NCBI GenBank assembly: GCA_031256725.1
Contig: JAIRQE010000021.1
Span: forward strand, 208,051-240,050
Source: Propionibacteriaceae bacterium
GTDB taxonomy: Bacteria; Actinomycetota; Actinomycetes; Propionibacteriales; Propionibacteriaceae
Direction of reading: 5' to 3'
Length of the DNA stretch: 32,000 nucleotides
Numbering within the stretch: the stretch's first letter is position 1; each line of letters begins with the position of its first letter. The notes below the pieces were generated by a model. It had not been told where the DNA came from, made no database searches, and saw only the letters and a list, made by a program, of their open reading frames with translations. This document shows, piece by piece, positions 3,107 to 21,394 of this stretch. A program made the position numbers and the translations under genes.

Positions 3107-3548
3107 TGACCTGATAGACTTGTCCTTGGTCCCCCGTACGGCGGTACCTCCCCCAACCCCTCCAGGGCCGGAAGGCAGCAAAGGTAAGGGAGCTCTACTG
3201 GGTGTACGGGGGGCTCTTCTGTTTTCAGGGAGAGTCCGAAAATTTCAGAGAGAGTCCGAAAACCTCCTACAAACAATAGAGCTTGCTAGAAAGCGCCCTA
3301 GTAGCGCGGGCTTCCGTTCATGAACTGGAAACGTTACCGGAATTATGTTCACGCTCACACTTTTCTGGATTTTTTTGAAACCCCTTTCCACAAGGGAAGA
3401 TAGTAAATTCAGGTCATTTTGCCGTCTGTGATCCTTAGAATTGTCAGTTGCTTAAGTTCCCCAAAAGCGTAGAGTTATCGACGAAATCATAATAGTTGTG
3501 GGTCCCGAGAAAGGGCGCGCAACACAATCGAAGGTTTGGGGGGACGAA

Positions 3549-6500
3549 ATGTCCACACTGCGGAAAAGTGCCTACGGGCTCGTTGCTGTTGTACTTGCAG
3601 CACTTCTTTCACTCTCACTAGTACCTAACGCCCAAGCGGTCGACGGTATTCCCGTCGCCTTTCCGCTAGGTTCACAGCAGATCTATATCAGCCAAGGTTA
3701 TGGTGGTGCAAACAACAACGCGTACACGCGGTGGTACACAGCTCAGATGAATGCGAATGGGTCCGCGGACCTCGTGCCCGTCTCAAGCGACATGACCATT
3801 GATACCCAGATGATCAATGCCCATGGGTACTCTGAACGCGACATGATGATCTATGGCATCGGACTTTCGAATTCCGCAGCAACCACGGGTGCTGGTACAC
3901 GAGAACTCGTTCGAGTTGGGCTCAGTGCAGATGGTACACAGATCGTCACCCAGAACCTCGGAGTCGTCGCAGGACTACCAACCCCCAATGACTCCTACAA
4001 TGCTGGAACCATGGTCCCCACAGGTGATAGTTGTGGACTGGCCACGGCTGATGATTGCCGGGCAATACTCATCGTCAAAGCCTCAAATTCAGCTGGCAGT
4101 CAGAACGTATCCTCCCTCTATATGATCAACGTCGACACCGTTTCTGTCGTCAAGACGATCCACCTATCGACTGCTATGCCAAATGTCTCAGATATCTTCT
4201 GGAAAGATGGCTTCATCTGGGCAGTACATGGTGATCCGACGAATGCTCAGGGTAACAAGATTGCCTCCAGGGTCTACCGGATTGACCCAGCCACCGGTCA
4301 GGTGAGTGTTTACACCCCTAGACTTGATATTAACTACGAATCCTATGGGGCACAGTACCTCTATGGGAACGGGAACTTTGGCATCCTGGGCAACACCACG
4401 GGGACTATGTACCAAATTCACATTGATGATCCGAGGGGGAACCCAACCTTTTCAGTTGTCTCTTACCGTTCCACGGGACTGTCCACCACCAAGAATGATG
4501 GTACGGCATATCGCGGTGTAGCTACCGACCTGAAGTTGGAGAAGACCACGAATAAGACTTTCAAGCCAGGAGATCCTGTCACCTACACGATCACAGTGAC
4601 CAACCTTGGTCCCACAGATTTCTCCGATTCCTCCGGTTGGGTTCTCACAGACATCCTTCCTGCAGTACCGAGCCCCTCCACAATCACGGGGCTCCCGGAA
4701 GGCTGTGTCATTAATGATGTCACACTGAATTGTTGGGGTGGGGCACTGCCTCATGGGCAATCAGCCACGATCAGCTTCACATATCCGGGATCTGCGACCA
4801 CAGGAATCACCGATGATGTGGTGAACACTGCAACAGTGCTCGGCAACGAATATGACCCCGATCTTTCGAATAATACGTCCACTGCAACGACCTTCCCCCT
4901 CGCCATCGACATCGTGAAGACTTCCTCAATCGGCAACATCATTGCTGTCAACGATCCGATCACCTATTCATTCACGGTCACCAATAGTGGGGGAATGACT
5001 CTTGATGATGTCTCGGTGAGTGACCCATTCTTGGAGGGGTTATCCATCTCAGTGACATGCCCTAAGACCACACTGATCGCCAATGAGTCAATGGTGTGTA
5101 CGGCGGCTTATGCAGCCACATCTGATGATATCGCGGCAGGTCAGATTATGAACACGGCCACAGCCAGTAGTACGTGGACCGATCCCGATGACCCAGGAAT
5201 GGAACCCATTACGGTGACCTCTCCTGAGTCGACTGTGATCATCATGGTGGGTGCTCTCAGCATCAACAAAATTGCTGATGTTCACATCGTGAAAGCCGCA
5301 GGAGATATCGTCAACTACTCCTTTGTTGTCACCAATCTTGGTGGAGTACCCCTGCATGACATCACCATCATAGACACTATGCTCACTGGTTCTGGGGTTC
5401 CCATCGTCTGCCCATCGACAACCCTTCCCGATGCATCTGAAGCTCCCAATAATGCCATGACATGTACTGCTCGTTATACGGTGACTTCAGCGGATATTGC
5501 TGCTGGCCAGATCGTCAACGTTGCAACAGCCACTGGGATTGACCCAGATGGCGACTCAGTACCAGCTCCGCAGTCCTCAGAGATCGTGAATGTTGCTGGC
5601 TTGACCATCACTAAGGATGCCAACAAGACCACTGTGTCCGCTGATGGTGAACAGGTCATCTATACCTTCCAGATACGCAATACGGGCCGGGTCAAACTGA
5701 CCAATGTGGCGGTGAACGACCCTATGCTCACCGGCGCTCTCGTTCCGATCAAGTGCCCATTGACCACTCTGATAGCGGGTGCGACTATGACATGTGCGGC
5801 AACATATATCGTGACTGAGGACGATATTGCTGCTGGTGAGATCCATAATGTGGCTACTGCTGGTGGTACTGATCCTGATGATAACCCAGTCACCACCCCC
5901 GAATCTTCGGTGAGTGTTGATGTAGCGTCGCTCGTGCTCAAGAAGACTTCAGATGATGAGGTGGTGTCCGCTGCCGGTGAAGAGGTTACGTACAACTTTG
6001 AGATTGCGAACACAGGCAATACTGATCTGACGGATGTGTCTGTTGACGATCCTATGGTGCAGGCTGCTGGTGCTGTGGTGATATGTCCACAGACTACCCT
6101 TGTAGTCGGAGAATCCATGACCTGTCATGCCACTTATGTGGTGAACGATGCTGATATCACTAATAAAGAAATCGTCAACATTGCAACAGCTCAGGGTACC
6201 TTCCCTGAAGGTGAGGTTGTCTCACCTCCGTCAACCGTCACCATAAATGTGAATAAGCCCGAGCCTAGGGAAACTTCCATCGCCGTTGTGAAGTCAGCAG
6301 ATAAGACTGTTGTTGGTGCAGTAGATGACGAGATCCTTTACACCTTTGCTGTGACTAACACGGGTAAGACCACTCTAAGTAACATCACCATCAACGACCC
6401 CATGTTGGATGCTGCTGGTGTTGTGGTGACCTGTCCTCCATCTGACCTCGCTAGTGGAGCAAGTGTTGAGTGTGTGGCCCCTTACCGTGTGACTGCTGCC

Positions 6501-8126
6501 GATCTGGCATCTGGCAAGATCGTGAATGTGGCGACGGCTTCGGGTGTTGATCCTGATGGTGAAGATGTGACCAGTCCTGAGTCTACTGTGACTGTTGGTG
6601 TGGTTGAGCTTGGTTTTGTGAAGTCCGCTGATCGTGAATCGGTTGAGAAGGCTGGAGACCAGATCCTCTACTCTTTCCAGGTGACCAACACTGGAACAGT
6701 CGACGTGAGCGACATCACTGTGGTGGATCCCATGTTGGCCGCTGCCGGTGTGGACATCTCCTGCCCCTCGACGCAGTTAGCTCCTGCAGCAAAGATGACA
6801 TGTACTGCAACCTATACGGTCACCGATGCTGACATTGCTGCTGGTCAGATTGAGAATCTTGCCTCTGCAACTGGGAAGGACCCCGATGATGGTGATGTCT
6901 CCACTGATCCTGATATGGTCACGGTTGATGTTGCTCGTATGTCCATCGTGAAGACTGTAACACCTGAGACAGTGATACATGCTGGTGACAAGGTAGAATA
7001 CTCCTTCATCGTCACCAATAATAGTGATGTTTTCATCAGTGAAATCGCAGTCAAAGACCCCATGCTCATCGAAGCTGGGGTAGAGATCAACTGTCCTGCA
7101 ACAACCCTTGTTGCCGGAGCATCCATGAGTTGTACAGCAACCTACACGGTGACCTCCGAAGAGATCACTGCGGGGGTACCGATCGTCAACGTGGCGACCA
7201 GTGAGGGTATAGACCCTGACGGCAACCCTGTTGTCACCCTAGAGGATACAGCAACAGTAGAGGTACTAACCGCCTCACTGAAGGTCGTCAAGACCGCAGA
7301 CCGCGATGTCGTGACCAAGGCTGGCGACGTGATCCTCTACAACTTCGACGTTGAAAACACTAGTGATGTCATCGTGACTGACATCGTCATCAACGACCCA
7401 ATGCTGGATGCTGCAGGAGCGGCAATCAGCTGCCCGGTCACCTCATTGGATGCACACGCAACCATGACCTGTACCGCTTCCTATACCGTCACCCAAGCTG
7501 ACATCAACGCGGGCAAGGTACGAAATGTCGCCACGGCGACTGCAAAGGACCCAGCAGGCACCCCTGTCGAGACTCCAGAAACAAGTGTTGAGATTCCAGC
7601 CGCGCCTGTCATCTCACTCACCCTGGTGAAATCCACGACCGCCAAGACAGCAAAGCTTGGCGACATGATCACCTACACCTTCACGATTACGAATACTGGA
7701 ACAGTGAGCATGACTAACCTCACCATTACAGAAACAAAGTTCACAGGTACTGGCAAGGTCCTCGACATGTCAGGTTTGACATGCGCCACCACCAATGCGG
7801 CAGTTCCTTCAGTCGCATTGAACAGTGTCACCCTAGAGCCAAACCAAACAATCATGTGTACGCTTCCTGCCTATCAGGTCGTTTCTGGTGATGTGGCCAC
7901 TGGCCGAGTAACCAATACAGCCGTTGCTGAAGGTACTCCGGTAGGAACGGACGGCCTACCAACGGTATCCAACCCTTCAACAACTGAAACTGGCATCATT
8001 CGGGTCCACCTAGTAGCCACTGGTGGTACAACCCCTCCCGCCACCCACAGTGGACTCCTAGCACTGATCCTGATGTCCAGCGGATTGGTTGCCCTCCTCA
8101 CAACACGCATCCGCAAGAAGGCGTAA
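3549..8126 (+). CDS. Cell-wall-anchored surface adhesin: signal peptide, ~300-aa N-terminal head domain, ~10 tandem DUF11/DUF7507-like Ig-fold repeats, LVATG sorting signal
   Basis: ATG 3549 is preceded by GGGGGA and gives MSTLRKSAYGLVAVVLAALLSLSLVPNAQA|VDG, a signal peptide with an AxA site. The ORF-track GTG at 3498 adds a non-signal extension. The C-terminus is LVATGG + hydrophobic GLLALILMSSGLVALLTT + RIRKKA, a sortase-type sorting signal. The repeats share the pattern xxY(T/S)FxVTNTGxxxLxxVxVxDPML....CP...L..G..M.C.A.Y.VT..D...G.I.N.A. Confidence 0.85.
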   Translation: MSTLRKSAYGLVAVVLAALLSLSLVPNAQAVDGIPVAFPLGSQQIYISQGYGGANNNAYTRWYTAQMNANGSADLVPVSSDMTIDTQMINAHGYSERDMMIYGIGLSNSAATTGAGTRELVRVGLSADGTQIVTQNLGVVAGLPTPNDSYNAGTMVPTGDSCGLATADDCRAILIVKASNSAGSQNVSSLYMINVDTVSVVKTIHLSTAMPNVSDIFWKDGFIWAVHGDPTNAQGNKIASRVYRIDPATGQVSVYTPRLDINYESYGAQYLYGNGNFGILGNTTGTMYQIHIDDPRGNPTFSVVSYRSTGLSTTKNDGTAYRGVATDLKLEKTTNKTFKPGDPVTYTITVTNLGPTDFSDSSGWVLTDILPAVPSPSTITGLPEGCVINDVTLNCWGGALPHGQSATISFTYPGSATTGITDDVVNTATVLGNEYDPDLSNNTSTATTFPLAIDIVKTSSIGNIIAVNDPITYSFTVTNSGGMTLDDVSVSDPFLEGLSISVTCPKTTLIANESMVCTAAYAATSDDIAAGQIMNTATASSTWTDPDDPGMEPITVTSPESTVIIMVGALSINKIADVHIVKAAGDIVNYSFVVTNLGGVPLHDITIIDTMLTGSGVPIVCPSTTLPDASEAPNNAMTCTARYTVTSADIAAGQIVNVATATGIDPDGDSVPAPQSSEIVNVAGLTITKDANKTTVSADGEQVIYTFQIRNTGRVKLTNVAVNDPMLTGALVPIKCPLTTLIAGATMTCAATYIVTEDDIAAGEIHNVATAGGTDPDDNPVTTPESSVSVDVASLVLKKTSDDEVVSAAGEEVTYNFEIANTGNTDLTDVSVDDPMVQAAGAVVICPQTTLVVGESMTCHATYVVNDADITNKEIVNIATAQGTFPEGEVVSPPSTVTINVNKPEPRETSIAVVKSADKTVVGAVDDEILYTFAVTNTGKTTLSNITINDPMLDAAGVVVTCPPSDLASGASVECVAPYRVTAADLASGKIVNVATASGVDPDGEDVTSPESTVTVGVVELGFVKSADRESVEKAGDQILYSFQVTNTGTVDVSDITVVDPMLAAAGVDISCPSTQLAPAAKMTCTATYTVTDADIAAGQIENLASATGKDPDDGDVSTDPDMVTVDVARMSIVKTVTPETVIHAGDKVEYSFIVTNNSDVFISEIAVKDPMLIEAGVEINCPATTLVAGASMSCTATYTVTSEEITAGVPIVNVATSEGIDPDGNPVVTLEDTATVEVLTASLKVVKTADRDVVTKAGDVILYNFDVENTSDVIVTDIVINDPMLDAAGAAISCPVTSLDAHATMTCTASYTVTQADINAGKVRNVATATAKDPAGTPVETPETSVEIPAAPVISLTLVKSTTAKTAKLGDMITYTFTITNTGTVSMTNLTITETKFTGTGKVLDMSGLTCATTNAAVPSVALNSVTLEPNQTIMCTLPAYQVVSGDVATGRVTNTAVAEGTPVGTDGLPTVSNPSTTETGIIRVHLVATGGTTPPATHSGLLALILMSSGLVALLTTRIRKKA
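4527..7997 (+). repeat. About 10 tandem, diverged ~110-aa (~330-bp) domain repeats inside the adhesin gene
   Basis: Successive units start near LKLEKTTNKT, AIDIVKTSS, LSINKIAD, LTITKDAN, LVLKKTSD, IAVVKSAD, LGFVKSAD, MSIVKTVT, LKVVKTAD and LTLVKSTT. Units 2-9 each carry a conserved Cys pair (..CP....C.A.Y). The copies are diverged at the nucleotide level and no long identical stretches were seen. Confidence 0.8.
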
Positions 8127-8274: not shown

Positions 8275-8362
8275 GGAGGATTCGCCTAGAGGCCTATGGC
8301 GCTCGCTTGGAAAGCGGGTTGGGTTCACGCCCTCACGAGTTCGAATCTCGTATCCTCCGCCA
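8275..8362 (+). tRNA. tRNA-Ser (anticodon GGA), CCA encoded
   Basis: Hand-folded cloverleaf. Acceptor GGAGGAT/ATCCTCC, D-stem GCC/GGC, anticodon stem CTCGC/GCGGG with loop TTGGAAA, long variable arm TTGGGTTCACGCCCTC, T-arm ACGAG-TTCGAAT-CTCGT, discriminator G, CCA. Confidence 0.95.
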
Positions 8363-8422
8363 TATGCTTCTTACTCAAACCACAAGAATGGGTAAAGGGC
8401 ATGTAGGTATCGTTTTGTTCTG
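8340..8422 (+). repeat. Left direct repeat of the island (attL-like): tRNA-Ser T-arm/3' end plus ~60 bp downstream
   Basis: TTCGAATCTCGTATCC (8340-8355) is identical to 21281-21296. GCCATATGCTTCTTACTCAAACCACAAGAATGGGTAAAGGGCATGTAGGTATCG... (8359-8422) matches 21331-21394 at about 54 of 64 positions in a hand alignment. Confidence 0.8.
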
Positions 8423-11700: not shown

Positions 11701-13640
11701 AGATGACCGAGACTGGGGACACTCTGGACAATCAAGTCTTCGTTGCCAACAATGATCGAGCTTCTACTCAATTGGAGTTACCCATTCGTGTGATCCTTGG
11801 CAACCCGCCCTACAGTGTCGGCCAAACTAGTGGAAATGATGACAACGCCAACCTGAAGTATTCGACCTTGGATGCCAGAATAGAATCAACCTACGCTGCT
11901 CAATCCAAAGCGGTGACAGGGAGAACAACCTATGACTCATATATTCGCGCAATGCGCTGGGCATCTGATCGGCTAGGTCAGACAGGAATAGTCTCCCTTA
12001 TTACGAACAATGGCTATCTGAATGCAAACAGTGCAGATGGACTTCGCCTGACGTTATGCGACGAGTATGACGACATCTACGTGCTAAACCTACGCGGTAA
12101 TTCTAGAGATCCTGGACAAGCAGCGAAACGAGAAGGTGGCAATGTCTTTGGAGTCAGGGTTGGAGTTGCAATCATCTTCCTTGTAAAGAGACAGGGTGCT
12201 CCTTCTATGGAAAGGATCAGGTACTACGAAACTGAAGACCACATGGTAAAGGGGCATAAACTACGGATGCTTTCAGAGACTCATCTAGGAGATATTCCTT
12301 GGCAAGACATCTATCCCAATCCTGACGGTGACTGGACTTTACAGAGAAGTGCGCTCTTTGAGACTTACCTTCCCCTGATCCATAAACAATCACTCAAAGC
12401 CGTCTTCGTGCAACACAGTCTTGGTCTTGGTAGTAATCGTGATGCCTGGGTGTACAACTCGTCGCTGTCGTCCCTGAAGATGAACGTGGAGCGGATGGTC
12501 GAGAGGTATAACGAGGAAGTCGCGCGCCTTTCGGATGCATCTCCATCCGACCGTAAGGTCTTGGCTGACAGAGACCCACGGGCGATAAGTTGGTCATCAA
12601 GTCTGGATTCCTGGCTCGCTCAAGGAAGAGCAATTGACATAGCACAAGGACATTGGATGGATGCTCAGTATCGTCCGTTTTGCCGACAGATGGTTTATTG
12701 CGGACCCGGTTTGATCCACCGACTTGGCGGGATTCCATCGTTTTTTCCTACACCAGCCCATGACAACATGGGATTCACCTTGACTGGTGCATCATCACAC
12801 TACGAGTTTGCGATTCTCGCCACGACTTGTCTTCCCGATCTGCACTTGCTTGACACAGGACAGTTCTTTGCTCGTTGGCGCTATGAGTCGATCCCCACCG
12901 ACTCGAAACAAGAGGCGTTCCATTTTGAAGAGCAAGACACCAAAGGGGGATATCGAAAGGTCGACAACATAACAGATTCTACTTTGCGCAGCTATCAAGA
13001 ACGCTATGGCATGCAGGTTACGAAGGATGACATCTTCTTTCACGTTTATGGTTTGCTCCACAGCACCGACTATCGTGAATCATTTGCTGTAGATCTGAAA
13101 AAGATGCTCCCACGCATTCCCATGGTTGCCGATCTGAAAACTTTCGAGGTTTTCGTGACTGCTGGACGAGAACTATTCGATCTGCATACCGGATACGAAA
13201 AGGTCGATCCGTGCCCAAACCTAATTGTCACGGGTGACGATCCCCAAGGCGACCCCTATGACTGGTACCGAGTGGACAAGATGCGTTACGGTGGCAAGTC
13301 CACCACCAAGGATAAAACCACCGTGATCTGTAACCCCCGAATCACAGTGACCGGCATTCCGCTTCAAGCCCAGGAGTACATGCTAGGAGCCCGAAGCGCC
13401 CTAGACTGGATCCTAGAGCGCTACCAAGTAAAAATCGACAAACCTTCGGGAATAGTGAACGACCCCAATGACTGGTCTCGCGAGCACCACCAACCTCGCT
13501 ACATCCTCGACCTCCTAACCCGAATCGTCACTGTGAGCATTCGAACTGTCGAGATTGTGGATTCTCTACCCAACCTTGAATTCAACGAAGACGGGGCTGT
13601 GGCAAGATGCCTTTCCGACACTCCGAAGGAGGAAAACTAA
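8727..13640 (+). CDS. Type ISP-like single-polypeptide restriction-modification enzyme (Mrr-type nuclease + SF2 DEAH translocase + gamma-class N6-adenine methyltransferase + target-recognition domain)
   Basis: 1637 aa. The N-terminus DKGDKFERLVRKFL...RGIDLVAID...WAVQCKFY has the Mrr-like D-(x)n-QxK PD-(D/E)xK motif. Walker A MACGTGKT is at nt 9339-9356. Motif II DEAH is at 9729-9740. TATP and QAVGRVMR form motifs III and VI. The AdoMet motif DPFTGTGTF starts at 11448. The catalytic NPPY is at 11802-11813. About 600 aa of C-terminal region remain. Domain order and size match the LlaGI/LlaBIII class. Confidence 0.85.
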   Translation: MSLPVPRIGNVYLTVTDLLAQLAASATSEKDKGDKFERLVRKFLQLDTAWASRFSEVFMWTEWPGRDGQPDRGIDLVAIDRETRAPWAVQCKFYAPDHYLTKPDIDSFLAESGKHPFVGRLIVSTTERWNPAAEASIQNQQIPVQRIGMTDLLDSSIDWSHFSFTKPEDLPLKPKKKLRPHQDQALAAVHEGLATHDRGKLIMACGTGKTFTSLRIAESEVGSGGSVLFLVPSIALLSQSLKEWSLEAETPLRTFAVCSDSKVGKDKGGEGEDISIVDLEIPATTDPTRLITQVQGNPDAGKDRMTVVFSTYQSIDVIHQAQDHGLGRFDLIICDEAHRTTGATLSGTSESAFVKIHDDNYIGGAKRLYMTATPRIYDDASKAKAGQADALLSSMDDEDLYGPEFHRLDFGEAVALGLLSDYRVVILTVPEDSVSRMMQSAFAVNSELNLPDAAKIIGCWNGLAKRGGEQDFPTDPEPMRRAVAFGADIKTSKLFTEEFGTVAGHYADLLEENSTTIESDGSVIVEDQDLLDTEVHHVDGTMNILTRNAALDWLRSEPPDGHCRILSNARCLAEGVDVPALDAVIFLNPRKSEVDVVQAVGRVMRQAPGKKYGYIILPIGIPAGETPHEALRRNDRFSVIWKVLQALRAHDSRFNAMINQIELNSQPPAQLRVIGVDLPEPGERKTDPATPDLQAMLPMDWQEWRDAIYAKIVDKVGSRRYWEDWAKDVADIVEAHTARLTALVESGDWKIQAAFTSFLGALRANLNDSIDTEQAISMLSQHMITKPVFDALFEDYSFSAHNPVAQVMQGMLDALEGSNLEAETAALDKFYTSVRERIQGIDNAQGKQRVLMELYEKFFRLAFKKTAESLGIVYTPVEIVDFIIRAVNDLLQEHFGQTLSDKGVHILDPFTGTGTFIVRLLESGLIKPKDLVRKYEEELHANEILLLAYYIAAANIEVTFRELQRDDVCRNAGCTCPDYEPFPGIVLTDTFQMTETGDTLDNQVFVANNDRASTQLELPIRVILGNPPYSVGQTSGNDDNANLKYSTLDARIESTYAAQSKAVTGRTTYDSYIRAMRWASDRLGQTGIVSLITNNGYLNANSADGLRLTLCDEYDDIYVLNLRGNSRDPGQAAKREGGNVFGVRVGVAIIFLVKRQGAPSMERIRYYETEDHMVKGHKLRMLSETHLGDIPWQDIYPNPDGDWTLQRSALFETYLPLIHKQSLKAVFVQHSLGLGSNRDAWVYNSSLSSLKMNVERMVERYNEEVARLSDASPSDRKVLADRDPRAISWSSSLDSWLAQGRAIDIAQGHWMDAQYRPFCRQMVYCGPGLIHRLGGIPSFFPTPAHDNMGFTLTGASSHYEFAILATTCLPDLHLLDTGQFFARWRYESIPTDSKQEAFHFEEQDTKGGYRKVDNITDSTLRSYQERYGMQVTKDDIFFHVYGLLHSTDYRESFAVDLKKMLPRIPMVADLKTFEVFVTAGRELFDLHTGYEKVDPCPNLIVTGDDPQGDPYDWYRVDKMRYGGKSTTKDKTTVICNPRITVTGIPLQAQEYMLGARSALDWILERYQVKIDKPSGIVNDPNDWSREHHQPRYILDLLTRIVTVSIRTVEIVDSLPNLEFNEDGAVARCLSDTPKEEN

Positions 13641-15616
13641 TGACTAAGTACTACCTCGATTTCTTGCCAGAACACGTTGAACGATCTTCTGTGCACCGAA
13701 ACGATCCAGTAAAAGCCGTTTTTGAGATCATTTGGAATTGCCTGGATGCCGATGCTCATGCAGTAGTTGTCGCGCTCAAGAGAAATGAGGCAGGTGGTAT
13801 CACTGGAGTCTCCATCAAAGATGATGGGCATGGTATAACTCCTGAAGCCGCCATATCGGAGTTCAAGCCAGTTGGTCCATCCTGGAAATCGACTCCAAGA
13901 TCAGTGAGTAAAAAGGAGGGGCGTCCTCTGCATGGTAAACACGGAGAAGGCAGATTGAGGGCATTTGCCCTGGGTCAGGATGTTCAATGGGTGAGTATTG
14001 CTGAAGACACGGGCAAGATCTGGAAAGAAACAACCATTCAGGCAAGTGGTAGTGAACTGCTCGTAGTGGATATTTCAGACAAAACAACGACTTCGCGCGC
14101 ATCTGGCACTCATTTCACCACCCAGGATGGTGACCGACTAGGAAAACTGGAAGCGGAGGCAATGATGGTGAAGCTGACGAATGAGTTTGCTGCCTACTTG
14201 CTTTCTTTTCCTAGTGTGAGCATCTCTTACGAAGGCAGAACTATTGATCCGAAGTCTGTAATGAGATCAGATTTTGTCAGTGACTTGGCATGGGAATTCG
14301 GGGGTGTCGAGCATCGGGCTGAGATTAGGATCATTGAGTGGCAAGACAATCGTGGAAGGGTCGTGTACTTGGCGGATCAGTCGGGTATACCTCTAGAAAA
14401 ACTAGACAAGTCCCCTGCTAGTGACTTTTCGTACGCCGCTTATATTATGTGGGAGGATATGCCAGAGCATCGAGGCGAGTGGTTATTGGAAAAACTCGAA
14501 ACCGAACCATCAATACTTCATGTGTTATTGGATATGTCTCTCACTTTCATCAAGGACTACTTCAGCTCCCGACGTGCAGAGCGTCGTCGCGAAATTGTCG
14601 ATCAATGGAAGCGGGACAAGACATATCCATATGATGCGGAACCGGCGACTCCTGAAGATCAAGTCGAACAAGCCATGTTTGATGTCGTGGCAACCGCAGT
14701 GCATTCAAACGTTCCCAATTCTCCTAATCAACAGCGTATGACACTGACCCTGCTGAAAGAAGCACTTCAAAAACGCCCTGATAACCTTACAAGTCTCCTT
14801 GATCAGTATCTGAACCTTAGCCTCGAGGAGCGTGAGCAGCTCGAATATCTTTTAGGAGATATCGGTCTTTCTAGGATTATTAGAGCCACGGCCAATGTGA
14901 GTGACAGGTTCCGTTTCTTAAGGGGTTTAGAACTCATGATTGATGACCCAGAGGCGAACAAACTGATTCGAGAGCGAGACCACCTTCATAAGATCCTAGA
15001 GCATGAATTGTGGGTGTTCGGAGAACAGTTCAATTCAATGATCAGTGAACGGGGTCTGACGGCAGTTCGCGATAGGCATAGGGATGTTCTTGGTTTGGAG
15101 CCTGTTTCAGGCAGTGTTCGTAGAGCGGATGGCTCTCTTGGCCGGGTTGATCTTTTGTTGTCTGCAACGACTCGTGAATCTGGAAGGAACCGACACTTAG
15201 TCGTTGAGTTGAAGGCTCCCAGTGTGGATGCAAAAAGTGAAGAGTTAACTCAGCTTCATTCGTACGCGGAAGCAGTAGCAAGAGACTCACATTTTGGTGG
15301 TGTACAGGTTCTCTGGGAGTTTTACTTGGTAACCGCAAGAATTCATTCATCCATTGTTAATCAGACTAGACAGTCGAATCGACCTCCTGGACTTGTATCG
15401 GAGTTCCCCCTAGATGATGGGTATGGTTCGCAGATAAGGGTTTGGGTGAAGACTTGGGCGGAAATAATCGAGGATAATCGTCAACGCTTGAATTACTACC
15501 AAGAGCATCTTCAAACAGATCACAGTTTAGAAGATGCAAAAGAGTATCTAGTGAGTCATTATCCGACAATCATTCCAGAGGCATTTATGCTTGAGACAGA
15601 TCCAGAAGGCACATAA
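13640..15616 (+). CDS. GHKL (MORC/paraMORC-like, HATPase_c_3-type) ATPase fused to a C-terminal Shedu/DUF4263-like PD-(D/E)xK nuclease domain
   Basis: ATG 13640 overlaps the upstream TAA by 1 nt (TAATG), with a strong SD (GAAGGAGGAAAA) 4-14 nt upstream. The ORF-track start at 13607 is less likely. The Bergerat-fold motifs are the N-box FEIIWNCLDADA, G1 box DDGHGIT and G2 box HGKHGEGRL. The C-terminus has ILEHELWVFGEQF...GRVDLLL(D at nt 15149)...HLVVELKAP(E 15206, K 15212)...LTQLHSYAE. This fits the D...ExK...Q..Y layout of Shedu-type nucleases. Confidence 0.7.
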   Translation: MTKYYLDFLPEHVERSSVHRNDPVKAVFEIIWNCLDADAHAVVVALKRNEAGGITGVSIKDDGHGITPEAAISEFKPVGPSWKSTPRSVSKKEGRPLHGKHGEGRLRAFALGQDVQWVSIAEDTGKIWKETTIQASGSELLVVDISDKTTTSRASGTHFTTQDGDRLGKLEAEAMMVKLTNEFAAYLLSFPSVSISYEGRTIDPKSVMRSDFVSDLAWEFGGVEHRAEIRIIEWQDNRGRVVYLADQSGIPLEKLDKSPASDFSYAAYIMWEDMPEHRGEWLLEKLETEPSILHVLLDMSLTFIKDYFSSRRAERRREIVDQWKRDKTYPYDAEPATPEDQVEQAMFDVVATAVHSNVPNSPNQQRMTLTLLKEALQKRPDNLTSLLDQYLNLSLEEREQLEYLLGDIGLSRIIRATANVSDRFRFLRGLELMIDDPEANKLIRERDHLHKILEHELWVFGEQFNSMISERGLTAVRDRHRDVLGLEPVSGSVRRADGSLGRVDLLLSATTRESGRNRHLVVELKAPSVDAKSEELTQLHSYAEAVARDSHFGGVQVLWEFYLVTARIHSSIVNQTRQSNRPPGLVSEFPLDDGYGSQIRVWVKTWAEIIEDNRQRLNYYQEHLQTDHSLEDAKEYLVSHYPTIIPEAFMLETDPEGT

Positions 15617-15876
15617 AGAATTGAGGTGATATCGCTAGAAAGATGACATGGCCTAGTACTTCTATGGACTGGACCTCAATGCCGTTTGAACCATCTGCGA
15701 ATGACTTGGTCTCGATGGGTGCTTTACAAGGAGAAACGCAGACTGGAAGTGATTTTCCGATCAAAATGCTAGGAACTGATCTGCAAACGTCACACGATTC
15801 ATTGGTCATTAACAAGGGGAAACGGAGATTTCCGTGGACGATGTCGATGAATTCTATTCAGAACCGTCTGCAAACG

Positions 15877-17553
15877 TCACAGTGCTTTCCAGATTGCCTG
15901 TGCATGGGAACCAACGTTCCGGATTCTTCCTCGTCGCCTCATTTTCGTAAGCAGGTTAGATAGCTTCGCCGCTTTGTCATCGATCCCATCGCCAAACTTG
16001 TCCCATAGCAAAGACTCCAGGTCAGCACGTGAAGCGCTTCCGTGTTGGGATAGGTAGGTAAGAATGGTCTTCTCGAAATAAGTATCACTGAGAGCTCTAG
16101 TTTGAGTGCTAGCTAGTGATCCAGCTAGTTGAGCTATTTTGGCTGAGACAAATAACTGCGGAGAGCGTCCTTCGATCAGTTCTTGTCTCCGAAGCCTTTG
16201 TCGGTCTACTCGATTGATTGGTAGACCTTTTTGCACACGATCTAAAGCCAGTATGTCAGCCAATGGAAGGTCACTTCGTTCCATAAGCACGGTTGTGTAT
16301 GCCTCATCCACGACTCGTCCGTATAGGTTGAACTTCACATGTGTGGGATCGGATAGGTCGTAATCGGGAAGAGGTAGGAAGCGATTGCGTTGAAGGGTTG
16401 TCATTTTGCGGATGCCGAAACCCATGGTCTCGATCATTCCGACGCTTGCCATGGCTTCGACTAGGAATGGGTTGCGGTAGTCTTCGGGCACCTTATCTGT
16501 GGTCACGTAATCCTCTGGTCGGCCTTCGAAGAATGAGCCACGGTTGACTATTTCTAGACGATCTACGTACTCGGTGACGATGATGCGTGCTCTGCTGGTG
16601 TAGTCCTGGTGAGCCAGGGCGTTGTGGATGGCCTCTAGGACGACCCATCGGTCGTACTTGTGGACTGTCTCCGCGATCAATGTGGCTGGTCTGAGCAGCT
16701 TGATTTCTAGGTTGCGTATGCGCTGGTAGAGATTGGTGGTGTTGAGCAAGAAGGGGGTCGTGAAGTGATGGTAGCCCTCTTCTTGGCCGACTAGGTGCCA
16801 TGTGATCTGGGCCATATGCGGGTTGAGTTTTCCTCCAGCAGCATATGTGCCAAGTAAAAGGATTGTGGCTCGGGTTATGCAGCCATCGCGGGTGAGACGG
16901 GCTCGTTCGAGGAACTCTTCCGTGCCCCAGTTGGCGATGTCGTCGGCAACCTCAGGATGCTTAGCAGCAAACTCGCTCCTAGCTTTAGCTAGGGCTTTCT
17001 CATCGAGATCCTTGATGGTTGCACCAGGCACGGGCACTGCCGTCCAGTCATTGTCGATTTTTTGGCGGCGAATGGTGTCCTGTTTATCAAGGCTCAACGG
17101 CACGAGGGTTTCTCCATCACGCGCGTAATAGTGACCTTTCCATGACATGGGAATTCCGCGGGGTGCTGAAGGTACTTCTAGGAGCAGAACCCGCCCATGT
17201 GTCAGCAGTTCATGGATTCCACGAAAGCCTGATCCCGGTCGAGTGCCTTGCTCTATGTGATCGCGGAGGGTTCTTTCGTTCTTTTCTCCACGCAAATAGT
17301 CGGTGCCTACGATGGTTCTGGAGTTATCCACGCCCAGTACAATCCAAGCTACTTCTTGACCAGCAAGGTTTGCTTCATTGGCGAGGGCTGTAAAGTAGCG
17401 CCCTAACTTGTCTTCGTCGAATTGTCTCTTGGCTTCTTTGAACTCGACAAGTGGACCTTCCCGACTGGCTAGAAGACGGTTAAGAGTTTCCTGGAGTTCT
17501 CTTTGGGATGCGCTGTGGCTCACCCTGATTACACTACTGGTTGGGTCGGACAT
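15877..17553 (-). CDS. AlbA_2 (Schlafen-like, 'divergent AAA') + HATPase_c_4 + C-terminal wHTH protein (often mis-annotated as RecG-like/transcriptional regulator)
   Basis: 558 aa. The N-terminus GPLVEFKEAKRQFDEDKLGRYFTALANEANLAGQEVAWIVLGVDNSRTIVG is the AlbA_2 signature (E-x-K ... AfAN ... l-x-x-GV-x-d). The middle VLEAIHNALAHQDYTSRARIIVTEYVDRLEIVNRGSF is the HATPase_c_4 signature. The C-terminal ILTYLSQHGSASRADLESLL is wHTH-like. An AAGGAAGGA RBS lies upstream. Confidence 0.8.
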   Translation of the reverse strand: MSDPTSSVIRVSHSASQRELQETLNRLLASREGPLVEFKEAKRQFDEDKLGRYFTALANEANLAGQEVAWIVLGVDNSRTIVGTDYLRGEKNERTLRDHIEQGTRPGSGFRGIHELLTHGRVLLLEVPSAPRGIPMSWKGHYYARDGETLVPLSLDKQDTIRRQKIDNDWTAVPVPGATIKDLDEKALAKARSEFAAKHPEVADDIANWGTEEFLERARLTRDGCITRATILLLGTYAAGGKLNPHMAQITWHLVGQEEGYHHFTTPFLLNTTNLYQRIRNLEIKLLRPATLIAETVHKYDRWVVLEAIHNALAHQDYTSRARIIVTEYVDRLEIVNRGSFFEGRPEDYVTTDKVPEDYRNPFLVEAMASVGMIETMGFGIRKMTTLQRNRFLPLPDYDLSDPTHVKFNLYGRVVDEAYTTVLMERSDLPLADILALDRVQKGLPINRVDRQRLRRQELIEGRSPQLFVSAKIAQLAGSLASTQTRALSDTYFEKTILTYLSQHGSASRADLESLLWDKFGDGIDDKAAKLSNLLTKMRRRGRIRNVGSHAQAIWKAL

Positions 17554-18196: not shown

Positions 18197-18742
18197 TCAC
18201 CTACTGCTTCCGCTAAGGATGCACCCTTCCCGATCAGGATGATGGTGTAGATAGGTGAGGTCTGCTGTCTTGTCAATGGGCGTGTTGGCATCCTGAACCC
18301 GGGTGTAGATGCTATTCGCTCGAACAGTGCGCGGCCTGGCACCAGCAGGCGCCTCAGTGAAGTCCTCCGTAATAAGGTACAGCGTATGGGAGGTATTTTT
18401 GACGATGAGAACATCAACCTGATGCCCAACCAGGGTGAAAGTCTGAACCAGCGCAGTGGGTCGCATTCCTCCCTGGAACTTCTTGTAGCGCAGGAAGTTC
18501 GTCAAGTCGTTGGTGTTCCTTCTGCCCTGGTCATTCTCTACTCCCACAACTGCGAAGCCATTGGCTTCATTGACCCCTATGATGATGTAGGCGTCTCTAT
18601 CCTCAAGGTTGTTCGCCATGCAGATGATGTCGTGTAACAGTTCGGCGCCCAAGGGCCACTGCTTCTTGAAGTCCCAATAGCCGCCCTCGCGACAGTCGCT
18701 GATGAGGCTTAAGACCACATCAGCAAGCTCATCATCAGTCAT
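18197..18742 (-). CDS. AlbA_2 (Schlafen-like) domain-only protein, possibly the truncated N-terminal half of a longer AlbA_2/HATPase_c_4 paralog
   Basis: 181 aa. GGYWDFKKQW...LLHDIICMANNLEDRDAYIIIGVNEANGFAVVGVEND...SIYTRVQDANTPI fits the AlbA_2 pattern. The next 100 bp downstream hold the HATPase_c_4 fragment. Confidence 0.65.
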   Translation of the reverse strand: MTDDELADVVLSLISDCREGGYWDFKKQWPLGAELLHDIICMANNLEDRDAYIIIGVNEANGFAVVGVENDQGRRNTNDLTNFLRYKKFQGGMRPTALVQTFTLVGHQVDVLIVKNTSHTLYLITEDFTEAPAGARPRTVRANSIYTRVQDANTPIDKTADLTYLHHHPDREGCILSGSSR

Positions 18743-19950: not shown

Positions 19951-21112
19951 TTACCTAACCCCTGTTCTTCGATCTCTTGGGATTGAATCTCCATCAGAGT
20001 CCCGCTGGTAATCCAACTCTGCCCTCTGGTAGCGTAACGCCGTCGTGGCGGATGTGTGCCCACCCACCGCCATGACAGCTCGCAGATTACCGCCCGAATG
20101 ACGGTAGATCGCCGTTAGCCCGGTGACACGGGTACCGTGGAAAATGTAACCGCCATCATCAGTGAGTAATCGCTTAATCTTCTCGTCCTCAGTTGCATCA
20201 GCCACCTGTTGGCAGGCCTTCTTGAATGCTTTCAACCATGCCGCTGACCGTACCGGCTTGCCATCTGCTGACCAGAACAGCAAACCATGTGGGCCAAGCT
20301 GGGTGTGATTCAGAAGATGATCGCGCACATCCGGCATTAACGCACTTGGAATGATCAGGCGCCTGTTACTCCGCTCGGTCTTCAGTCCACCGATGGGGTT
20401 ATCCCAGTCCCGCTTGTTGATGGAGTGCTGAATGTGTAGGACATCATCATCGAAATCCTGGCGTTGCAACGCCCGTACCTCTCCTGAGCGCAACCCCAGC
20501 ACCCCGGCCAGCAGTACGCCCAAACGGAACCATGGCGGCATCTCGTCAGCGATGGCATACAACACCGGCAGTGGATCGTTGTTGCGTTCCTTCGATGGTT
20601 TACCAGCGCCCTTGATCCTCGCCGGGTTCACATCGATGGCGGCGTTCATGATCGCCCGCAACAGGCCGTACGCCTGATGGCACGAAGCAGCCCGCTCGAC
20701 GACCGGCAGGCTCTGCCACCATGCCCGAACCTGGCGGCGGGTCAGTTCCTCGATCAGTACGTCGCCGAGACCATGAGTCGTCCATGCAGGCGGATCGCCT
20801 GGTCTCGATATACGCCGCACCGAAGGTTGCGATTGTCGGAGCGTCCTTGCGAGCTTGCTCGGCTTGCCGGGCTTCTTCCACCCGCTCGGCAGGAGGGCTC
20901 CACCGGTCAGTCTCGATCAGGCGACGCTCCCTCTCCAACCAGACCCGAGCAGCACCCTCAGTCTGGAAGCTGCGTGATGCGAAGTACTCCGCACTCGGCT
21001 GTACCCCAGAAATGCCACCATGCCGGTATGAGGCCGTGAAGTTACCCGACTTTTGCCGTCATACCGTGCCCCACGTGGACCGGTAGCCACTCGGTTTCCT
21101 TGCTCTTGGCAT
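19951..21112 (-). pseudogene. int: Tyrosine recombinase/phage-type integrase, disrupted (in-frame TGA at codon 18 and a frameshift/deletion near 20800-20830)
   Basis: The minus-strand ATG at 21112 gives MPRARKPSGYRSTWGTV*(TGA = 21061-21059)RQKSGNFTASYRH...FQTEGAARVWLERERRLIETDRWSPP...TFGAAYIETRR. The reading then continues only in another frame: ...HGLGDVLIEELTRRQVRAWW...GLRSGEVRAL...FHGTRVTG...GGHTSATTALRYQ. These contain the catalytic R, HxxR and H..Y boxes. The linker between TFGAAYIETRR and GLGDV is about 20 aa shorter than usual. Confidence 0.75.
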
Positions 21113-21280
21113 AACTCTTATCTCTCGCGTGAATCTCAGCTCCGCTACGTTATCGCTACGCTATGTACCTATAACAAGCATACTCAAGCGGGTGCAACTG
21201 AATACACTCTTCATCTACAGCACCTTGTCAGGTGCGTGTTTTCAGTTCTGGCAAGGAGCGAGGAAACCACCCCGCTCGTA

Positions 21281-21394
21281 TTCGAATCTCGTATCCCCGC
21301 TGGTCAGTCACAAAGAGAAGGATTAAGATCGCTATATGTTCCTTACTCAAACCACAAGAATAGGTAAAGGGCATGTAAATATTGTTTGGTTTGG
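21281..21394 (+). repeat. Right direct repeat of the island (attR-like): degenerate tRNA-Ser 3' fragment, ~31-bp insertion, then the shared ~64-bp segment
   Basis: TTCGAATCTCGTATCC-CCGC (21281-21299) is followed by an unrelated TGGTCAGTCACAAAGAGAAGGATTAAGATC. Then comes GCTATATGTTCCTTACTCAAACCACAAGAATAGGTAAAGGGCATGTAAATATTG.... The upstream bases do not form a T-stem, so this is a fragment and not a second tRNA. Confidence 0.8.

Follow-up and report, generated by a model that had tools for sequence, protein, structure and literature searches.

A GHKL ATPase–nuclease fusion of probable paraMORC3 type on a tRNA-Ser integrative island of a Propionibacteriaceae bacterium

Proteins that join a GHKL ATPase to a nuclease have been described under several names. 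The paraMORC3 proteins consist of a GHKL domain, an S5 domain and a C-terminal domain of the restriction-endonuclease fold with an E-D-ExK signature, and the nuclease-bearing members are standalone, laterally mobile genes (Iyer, Abhiman & Aravind, Biol Direct 2008; PMC2292703). More recently, type 1D Shedu was reported to include, in its range of N-terminal modules, HATPase_c_3 together with a GHKL-associated middle domain (Gu et al. 2023; bioRxiv 10.1101/2023.08.10.552793). The same architecture is found in VcSduA (A1552VC_00276) of the WASA lineage of Vibrio cholerae, a 'type I-D Shedu', which protects against phage without killing the host and loses this protection in either the E27A (ATPase) or the K557A (nuclease) mutant (Adams et al., Nat Microbiol 2025; PMC12137116). 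Here we analyse a gene of this kind in a 32,000-nucleotide (nt) stretch of DNA from a Propionibacteriaceae bacterium (assembly GCA_031256725.1, contig JAIRQE010000021.1, positions 208,051 to 240,050), referred to below as the window.

The product of this gene is an uncharacterised member of the already known fusion architecture. The original prediction, made from the sequence alone, had called the fusion unusual, a description that does not hold in view of the reports of 2008, 2023 and 2025 cited above. In our reading, the gene probably encodes a paraMORC3-type enzyme, a self-contained antiphage or anti-mobile-DNA nuclease like VcSduA.

Two conserved active sites in one polypeptide

The gene begins with an ATG placed 7 nt downstream of a GGAGG (Table 1). 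This is a plausible start, and an open reading frame (ORF) that begins at 13607 is less likely to mark the true one. The window protein is identical to an NCBI record named 'MAG: ATP-binding protein [Propionibacteriaceae bacterium]', while its second-nearest relative shares only 49% identity with it. All the peptides quoted in the original prediction were found in the protein at the positions given for them.

Conservation of these peptides was assessed in an alignment of the window protein with 72 relatives (n=73), which are ~30% identical to it and were taken from the weaker-scoring part of the best 150 matches listed in an exhaustive profile search. On the ATPase side, N33, D36, D61, G63, G99 and G104 are invariant (73/73), as are E445, W458, D504, E523, K525 and Q538 on the nuclease side. 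E29 and Y542 are kept in 72/73 sequences, and an acidic residue (E or D) occupies position 462 in 72/73. Somewhat more variation is seen at G65 (70/73), G102 (72/73) and T157 of motif IV (59/73). Because the motifs are near-invariant in 73 sequences at ~30% identity, they are not chance matches. Judged by this conservation, both active sites are under selection.

Pfam HATPase_c_3 matches aa (amino acids) 25-129 of the window protein (E 2.1e-15), and MutL, Topo VI-B and MORC2 are among the Protein Data Bank (PDB) structures matched by profiles of the family. A Foldseek search with the full-length AlphaFold2 (AF2) model, whose mean predicted local distance difference test (pLDDT) score is 78, recovered the N+M module of TRAP1/Hsp90, the 43-kDa fragment of GyrB and the ATPase modules of MORC2/3, with E ~1e-10. 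These alignments span 360-460 columns, so the likeness reaches past the GHKL (Bergerat) domain into the transducer. Pfam, the PDB profile matches and Foldseek agree on a GHKL fold at the N-terminus, as had been predicted.

With MutL, MORC, Topo VI-B, GyrB and Hsp90 the window protein shares the Bergerat fold, all four ATP-binding motifs and the transducer domain that follows. It has, however, no MutL C-terminal domain, Toprim, topoisomerase partner, CW or coiled-coil domains, and it carries a PD-(D/E)xK nuclease of its own. The earlier label 'MORC-like' proved too specific: in a regular-expression search, the MORC-specific S5 motif GhXhhpXXRhl was absent from the window protein and found in 16/346 full-length relatives. 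We therefore use 'paraMORC-like' instead. A histidine kinase was rejected as a candidate, since a HisKA/DHp domain is absent and the weak BaeS matches (E 0.004 to 0.1) fall in the helical linker.

The GHKL domain also links the protein to Type II restriction endonucleases of the BbrUII/HgiDII kind, which would be sequence-specific enzymes acting in a methyltransferase-protected host. The NCBIfam model of these enzymes, NF050001, has 659 positions, close to the length of the window protein, and matches it with E 3.8e-13. In two sets of family members, 58 and 73 sequences in size, the PADLOC REase_II models PDLC03419 and PDLC03485 match 44/58 and 47/73 members. All these matches, however, are limited to the GHKL N-terminus: the NF050001 alignment uses profile positions 26-121 and is confined to the first ~120 residues, with the remainder unrelated at the sequence level. 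The NF050001 match reaches 48.8 bits, whereas the curated cut-off is 550, and no dedicated methyltransferase gene is conserved beside family members. We consider a Type II enzyme highly unlikely. The GHKL N-terminus that NF050001 shares with aa 26-126 of the window protein raises the possibility of a paraMORC-like scaffold in some of the classical Type II enzymes.

Between the two catalytic domains, the AF2 model places strands at aa 194-270 with a pLDDT of ~87-96, followed by six long helices (292-325, 338-353, 362-378, 380-391, 395-407 and 410-435) that form a linker conserved across the family. The segment EQLEYLLGDIG (nt 14834-14866) lies within it. A helical linker of ~250 aa had been proposed; in the model the helices account for ~150 aa (~291-440), and aa ~191-290 form a beta-rich transducer domain instead.

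A PD-(D/E)xK nuclease at the C-terminus, the other half of the predicted fusion, is borne out by the invariant E...D...ExK...QxxxY residues, their structural context and recurrent weak Pfam matches. In the AF2 model the elements follow the order alpha-beta-beta-alpha-beta. E445 and W458/E462 lie on a helix, one strand begins with D504 and the strand after it ends with E523-x-K525, and Q538-xxx-Y542 falls on the helix after the ExK strand, with further strands beyond. Pfam HSDR_N_2 is matched weakly by 51/58 and 48/73 sequences of the two sets, with a best E of 2.7e-5 and an alignment that covers aa 502-546, and NucS_C, VRR_NUC, Mrr_cat, PDDEXK_9 and PDDEXK_4 are matched weakly on occasion in the family. 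The aromatic-rich helix that had been singled out is conserved in part, in that W458 is invariant and E/D462 is kept, whereas E454 and E456 vary. Around this helix, conservation of acidic residues is seen at E445 and E/D462.

Among the matches listed for the full-length model by Foldseek against the PDB and BFVD there were GHKL proteins only and no nuclease, and hidden Markov model (HMM) searches of PDB sequences with four profiles (full-length or C-terminal, narrow or diverse) found no SduA, EndoMS or any other nuclease. A TPR-like match of the last helix in the PDB-sequence search was rejected as spurious. Foldseek matches of a separate model of aa 392-658 to Mad2 and CorA were likewise rejected as noise (E > 0.1, model pLDDT 56.5).

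The nuclease domain compared with Shedu and paraMORC3 proteins

The C-terminal domain had been assigned by eye to the DUF4263 nuclease core of Shedu. The D, ExK and Q..Y motifs of that assignment stand, but Pfam PF14082 (DUF4263) matches none of ~145 sequences and the SduA assignment was not confirmed. The window protein has no PF14082 match at E <= 1, and neither do the Salmonella, Psychrobacter and Deinococcus members together with ten short relatives (13 in total); at E <= 0.1, none was found in the 58 + 73 (131) family members. PF14082 is also absent from the precomputed Pfam annotation of ~325 listed homologues. A bridge to DUF4263 was sought in proteobacterial, Deinococcus and Bacillota members and in nuclease-only relatives, none of which has a PF14082 match.

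The PADLOC SduA model PDLC00401 gives a weak match to the window protein (E 0.0019) that covers only aa 399-475 and uses profile positions 201-271 of 404. At E < 0.01, weak matches to this model occur in 16/58 and 10/73 members (26/131), the best with E 1.1e-5. The matched region is reported for two members, the window protein and a Deinococcus member; in the latter it is likewise aa 399-475, on the helices ahead of the D/ExK strands. Three consensus sequences of the family, searched against PADLOC, had no SduA match at E <= 1. A consensus should outscore single members if the relationship were detectable, and this null result weakens the sporadic single-sequence matches. PD-(D/E)xK motifs I-IV (E, D, ExK, Q) are present and invariant; they are generic to the superfamily, not specific to Shedu. 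The nuclease domain is in the same superfamily neighbourhood as DUF4263, HSDR_N and NucS, and the Shedu label for the window protein, taken from the literature, is plausible.

Compared with canonical SduA of Bacillus cereus and Escherichia coli, the window protein shows the same C-terminal PD-(D/E)xK motifs I-IV, a helical linker and a variable N-terminal regulatory region. Canonical SduA is a single-gene defence system, as the window protein probably is as well. The weak PADLOC matches fall, in the two members with a reported region, on the helices preceding the core. The two proteins differ in that PF14082 never matches the window family and in that an ATPase takes the place of a DNA-end-binding or sPC4/Whirly domain as the N-terminal sensor of the window protein. 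The spacing of the motifs differs as well: from K to Q there are 29 residues in B. cereus Shedu (residues used: E204, D249, E264, K266 and Q295) and 13 in the window protein.

VcSduA is likewise one polypeptide, in which a GHKL ATPase at the N-terminus, a middle region resembling a clamp and a PD-(D/E)xK nuclease at the C-terminus follow one another. Its E27 and K557 stand at positions similar to E29 and K525 of the window protein; across the family, the glutamate of the N-box is found between residues 26 and 32 and the lysine of ExK between 521 and 545. The gene for VcSduA, too, lies on a genomic island, with another restriction system next to it. By contrast, a recognisable DUF4263 domain is reported for VcSduA, whereas Pfam finds no DUF4263 domain in the window family. 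Among the best 120 relatives of the gammaproteobacterial (Salmonella) homologue and in the Vibrio clusters examined, there was no V. cholerae protein.

The likeness to paraMORC3 is drawn from its published description. The window protein has a GHKL domain with ATP-binding motifs, an S5/transducer domain and an extra C-terminal nuclease domain with E445/E462, D504 and E523xK525, and it is without the MORC-specific S5 motif. Its family is sporadic and mobile, occurring on plasmids and in several phyla, and has no conserved neighbour. One difference concerns distribution, in that paraMORC3 was reported mainly in Proteobacteria and Bacteroidetes (PMC2292703) while the window copy and its nearest relatives are actinobacterial. 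Full-length proteobacterial relatives of the window protein do exist, at 30-33% identity.

Distribution and genomic context

A search with the C-terminal profile found 1,620 clusters at 50% identity, 517 of them at E <= 1e-30. Among the matches listed, almost all are 640-700 aa long, with the matched domain at ~aa 390-655. Full-length members occur in 77 actinobacterial species genomes, in Alpha- and Gammaproteobacteria (Salmonella, Klebsiella, Pseudomonas and many Vibrio species), in Deinococcus and in Paenibacillus (Bacillota), and 47 plasmids carry a copy.

Family members are usually annotated as 'ATP-binding protein' or 'DNA mismatch repair protein', and the second name implies a housekeeping MutL-like DNA-repair factor. 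Apart from the UniRef and NCBI names of Vibrio and Alteromonas relatives, this alternative can draw on the MutL structures matched in the PDB and on a match to TIGR00585 (E 1.3e-6). That match, however, scores 27.6 bits against a cut-off of 180 and covers only aa 23-70, ~50 residues in the N-box region, and the C-terminus is a PD-(D/E)xK domain, not a MutL C-terminal domain. Furthermore, the distribution is patchy (plasmids, islands and conjugative elements), there is no linked MutS, and a conserved syntenic position in the core genome was not seen in the loci examined. A housekeeping repair role is hardly credible.

Shortened and broken relatives were also encountered. Relatives of ~210-415 aa that comprise only the linker and nuclease, with no GHKL gene nearby, are found on a Curtobacterium plasmid (locus L084, 3010-3747) and in Enterocloster (locus L088, 6001-7026), and one relative with the nuclease module only lies beside a resolvase in a conjugative element. 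Such nuclease-module-only relatives are reminiscent of the domain-only 'type 2' Shedu, yet they have no Pfam DUF4263 match. A broken copy (locus L091, 4994-7026) is split into three ORFs, an 86-aa HATPase_c_3 protein and products of 218 aa and 341 aa, and adjoins an OLD-TOPRIM/UvrD (Gabija-like) pair and an Mrr nuclease.

A conserved partner gene was sought by all-against-all clustering of the ORFs within 6 kb in 77 loci, and no neighbour family recurred in >8 loci. The Pfam annotation of the 136 immediate neighbours is heterogeneous. Relatives adjoin Drt2 and a Dcm/LlaMI restriction–modification (RM) pair; Abi_2, ThsB_TIR and pP_pnuc_1; or ApeA-HEPN, NYN and FtsK/resolvase genes. The contexts of the family are defence islands and mobile elements. 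Since no neighbour family exceeds 8/77 loci, we take the protein to be a standalone nuclease, in agreement with the description of paraMORC3 (PMC2292703).

In the window, the gene directly follows one for a single-polypeptide Type ISP RM enzyme, which has the complete set of Pfam domains (Mrr_cat_2, ResIII/Helicase_C, ISP_coupler, N6_Mtase and Type_ISP_C, the last with E 4.5e-95). Within the sequence TAATG (13638-13642), the ATG of the fusion gene overlaps the TAA (13638-13640) of the Type ISP gene, and this overlap of start and stop codons suggests co-expression. A promoter-like or terminator-like site was looked for between the two genes and none was seen; the two are probably co-transcribed, to judge from this arrangement.

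This arrangement could mean that the protein serves the Type ISP enzyme as an accessory subunit, in which the GHKL clamp would loop or hold DNA and give the translocating ISP enzyme a second nuclease. Besides the TAATG overlap, with its own GGAGG and no promoter or terminator between the genes, a minority of neighbours in related loci have ResIII/DEAD helicase, N6_Mtase or Type_ISP_C domains. Yet a Type ISP homologue stands immediately upstream in 0/77 related loci, a match to the helicase region of the Type ISP enzyme occurs in only 3/77 loci, on the opposite strand and 0.1-2.2 kb away, and the closest relatives examined are in unrelated contexts. The known Type ISP enzymes LlaGI and LlaBIII are complete single-polypeptide systems, which counts against the need for a subunit, and the enzyme in the window has all the domains expected of a complete system. 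In the literature, MORC and paraMORC genes are linked to superfamily-II (SF-II) helicases and methylases, and an accessory role in RM operons was proposed for them by Iyer et al., while the nuclease-bearing paraMORC3 proteins were described as standalone (PMC2292703). On balance, we regard an accessory subunit as unlikely. The stop/start overlap is the one local peculiarity of the window gene; co-expression with the Type ISP enzyme is probable here, and in general the gene does not depend on such an enzyme.

The fusion gene is cargo of a 13-kb integrative island at a tRNA-Ser gene. The island is bounded by imperfect direct repeats spaced ~12.95 kb apart; in the right copy, the tRNA 3' end (26 nt) is repeated with 85% identity and the 62 nt downstream of it with 87%. 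For an attachment (att) site, this direct repeat is unusually long and imperfect. The cargo consists of the Type ISP RM gene, the GHKL-nuclease gene, two AlbA_2/Schlafen genes, RhuM and a tyrosine integrase (Table 1).

The Schlafen/AlbA_2 proteins are encoded at 15877-17553 and 18197-18742 on the minus strand, and one of them, 558 aa long, has a HATPase_c_4 domain; the two could be additional defence or regulatory genes carried by the island. The 15-nt sequence TCTGCAAACGTCACA is present as an exact direct repeat at 15780-15794 and 15867-15881, 87 nt apart. Its first copy falls in the gap between the convergent fusion and AlbA_2 genes, and the second extends over 5 nt at the 3' end of the AlbA_2 ORF. 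A gene at 3498-8126 (plus strand), a short way upstream of the tRNA-Ser gene, encodes a protein of 1,542 aa that consists of repeats of DUF7507, DUF11 and DUF6923 (Pfam E 1e-216) and looks like a large surface protein.

Table 1. Positions of the fusion gene, its domains and motifs, and the associated island features in the window.
Feature	Position (nt)	Strand	Basis
GHKL ATPase / PD-(D/E)xK nuclease fusion, coding sequence with stop codon	13640..15616	+	ORF list; 658 aa
Ribosome-binding site GGAGG (13628-13632) and ATG start (13640-13642)	13628..13642	+	sequence read directly
GHKL (Bergerat-fold) ATPase domain, aa 1-190	13640..14209	+	Pfam, profile matches, residue conservation
ATPase motif I/N-box, E29-N33-D36	13724-13756	+	residue conservation
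EIIWNCLDADA, aa 29-39	13724-13756	+	motif located in window protein
ATPase motif II, D61xG63xG65	13820-13840	+	residue conservation
DDGHGIT, aa 61-67	13820-13840	+	motif located in window protein
ATPase motif III, G99..G102xG104	13931-13957	+	residue conservation
HGKHGEGRL, aa 98-106	13931-13957	+	motif located in window protein
ATPase motif IV, T157	14102-14119	+	residue conservation
Beta-rich transducer / S5-like domain, aa ~191-290	14210..14509	+	AF2 strands, Foldseek spans
All-helical linker, aa ~291-440, six long helices	14510..14959	+	AF2 secondary structure
PD-(D/E)xK nuclease domain, aa ~441-626	14960..15517	+	conserved residues, AF2 order, weak Pfam matches
Nuclease residues E445 and W458/E462, first helices	14972-15031	+	conservation
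ILEHELWVFGEQF, aa 452-464	14993-15031	+	motif located in window protein
Nuclease residue D504	15140-15160	+	conservation
GRVDLLL, aa 501-507	15140-15160	+	motif located in window protein
Nuclease residues E523-x-K525	15194-15220	+	conservation
HLVVELKAP, aa 519-527	15194-15220	+	motif located in window protein
Nuclease residues Q538-xxx-Y542	15245-15271	+	conservation
LTQLHSYAE, aa 536-544	15245-15271	+	motif located in window protein
Type ISP RM enzyme, upstream, single polypeptide, 1,637 aa	8727..13640	+	Pfam; stop/start overlap
tRNA-Ser(gga) gene	8275-8362		ARAGORN
Left island repeat: tRNA-Ser(gga) 3' end + 57 nt downstream	8330..8419	+	ARAGORN; direct-repeat families D1, D3
Tyrosine integrase, just inside right repeat	19951-20820	-	Pfam Phage_integrase
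Right island repeat: partial tRNA-Ser 3' end + 62 nt downstream	21271..21391	+	direct repeats D1, D3

Proposed function and implications

The window protein combines two active sites, both intact and conserved, in a single chain, and its gene is mobile, defence-associated and partner-independent. By analogy with MutL, MORC, Topo VI-B and GyrB, and with VcSduA, ATP binding would bring two GHKL domains together as a dimer. With the transducer and linker domains shaping a clamp or cavity around DNA, the ATP-driven change would position or license the paired C-terminal nuclease domains, leading to cleavage of foreign DNA. ATP hydrolysis would then reset the enzyme. The dimer, the clamp on DNA, the trigger and the coupling of the ATPase to the nuclease are parts of this scheme that we infer from these better-known enzymes.

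Several points weigh against a self-contained, VcSduA-like nuclease. With a start codon that overlaps the Type ISP stop codon, the gene may encode a functional partner of that enzyme instead of an independent one. The C-terminal domain is modelled with moderate confidence (pLDDT 47-88 in the full-length AF2 model, the better of two for this region), and the separate AF2 model of aa 392-658, built from 22 sequences, was too poor at its pLDDT of 56.5 for fold comparison. In addition, as a family without a Pfam DUF4263 match, these proteins may represent a lineage distinct from the one tested experimentally. In a further alternative, the family would be an independent, non-Shedu GHKL/PD-(D/E)xK lineage missed by current defence finders and recruited here as a translationally coupled Type ISP partner; it could, for instance, be a clamp nuclease gated by ATP and directed at the DNA that the ISP translocase has engaged. 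We consider this quite unlikely, and a standalone paraMORC3-type nuclease remains the probable reading.

The general picture is unchanged, as the fusion itself was already known, and the value of the finding lies mostly in annotation: at least 1,620 clusters (50% identity) that carry generic names have the architecture of a validated antiphage nuclease. The overlap with the Type ISP gene makes this locus a natural test case for the cooperation of paraMORC proteins with helicase-type restriction enzymes that was proposed in 2008. If the family belongs with VcSduA, censuses of defence systems under-count the GHKL-nuclease family; if it forms a lineage of its own, the origin or the diversification of GHKL-gated nucleases was not a single event.

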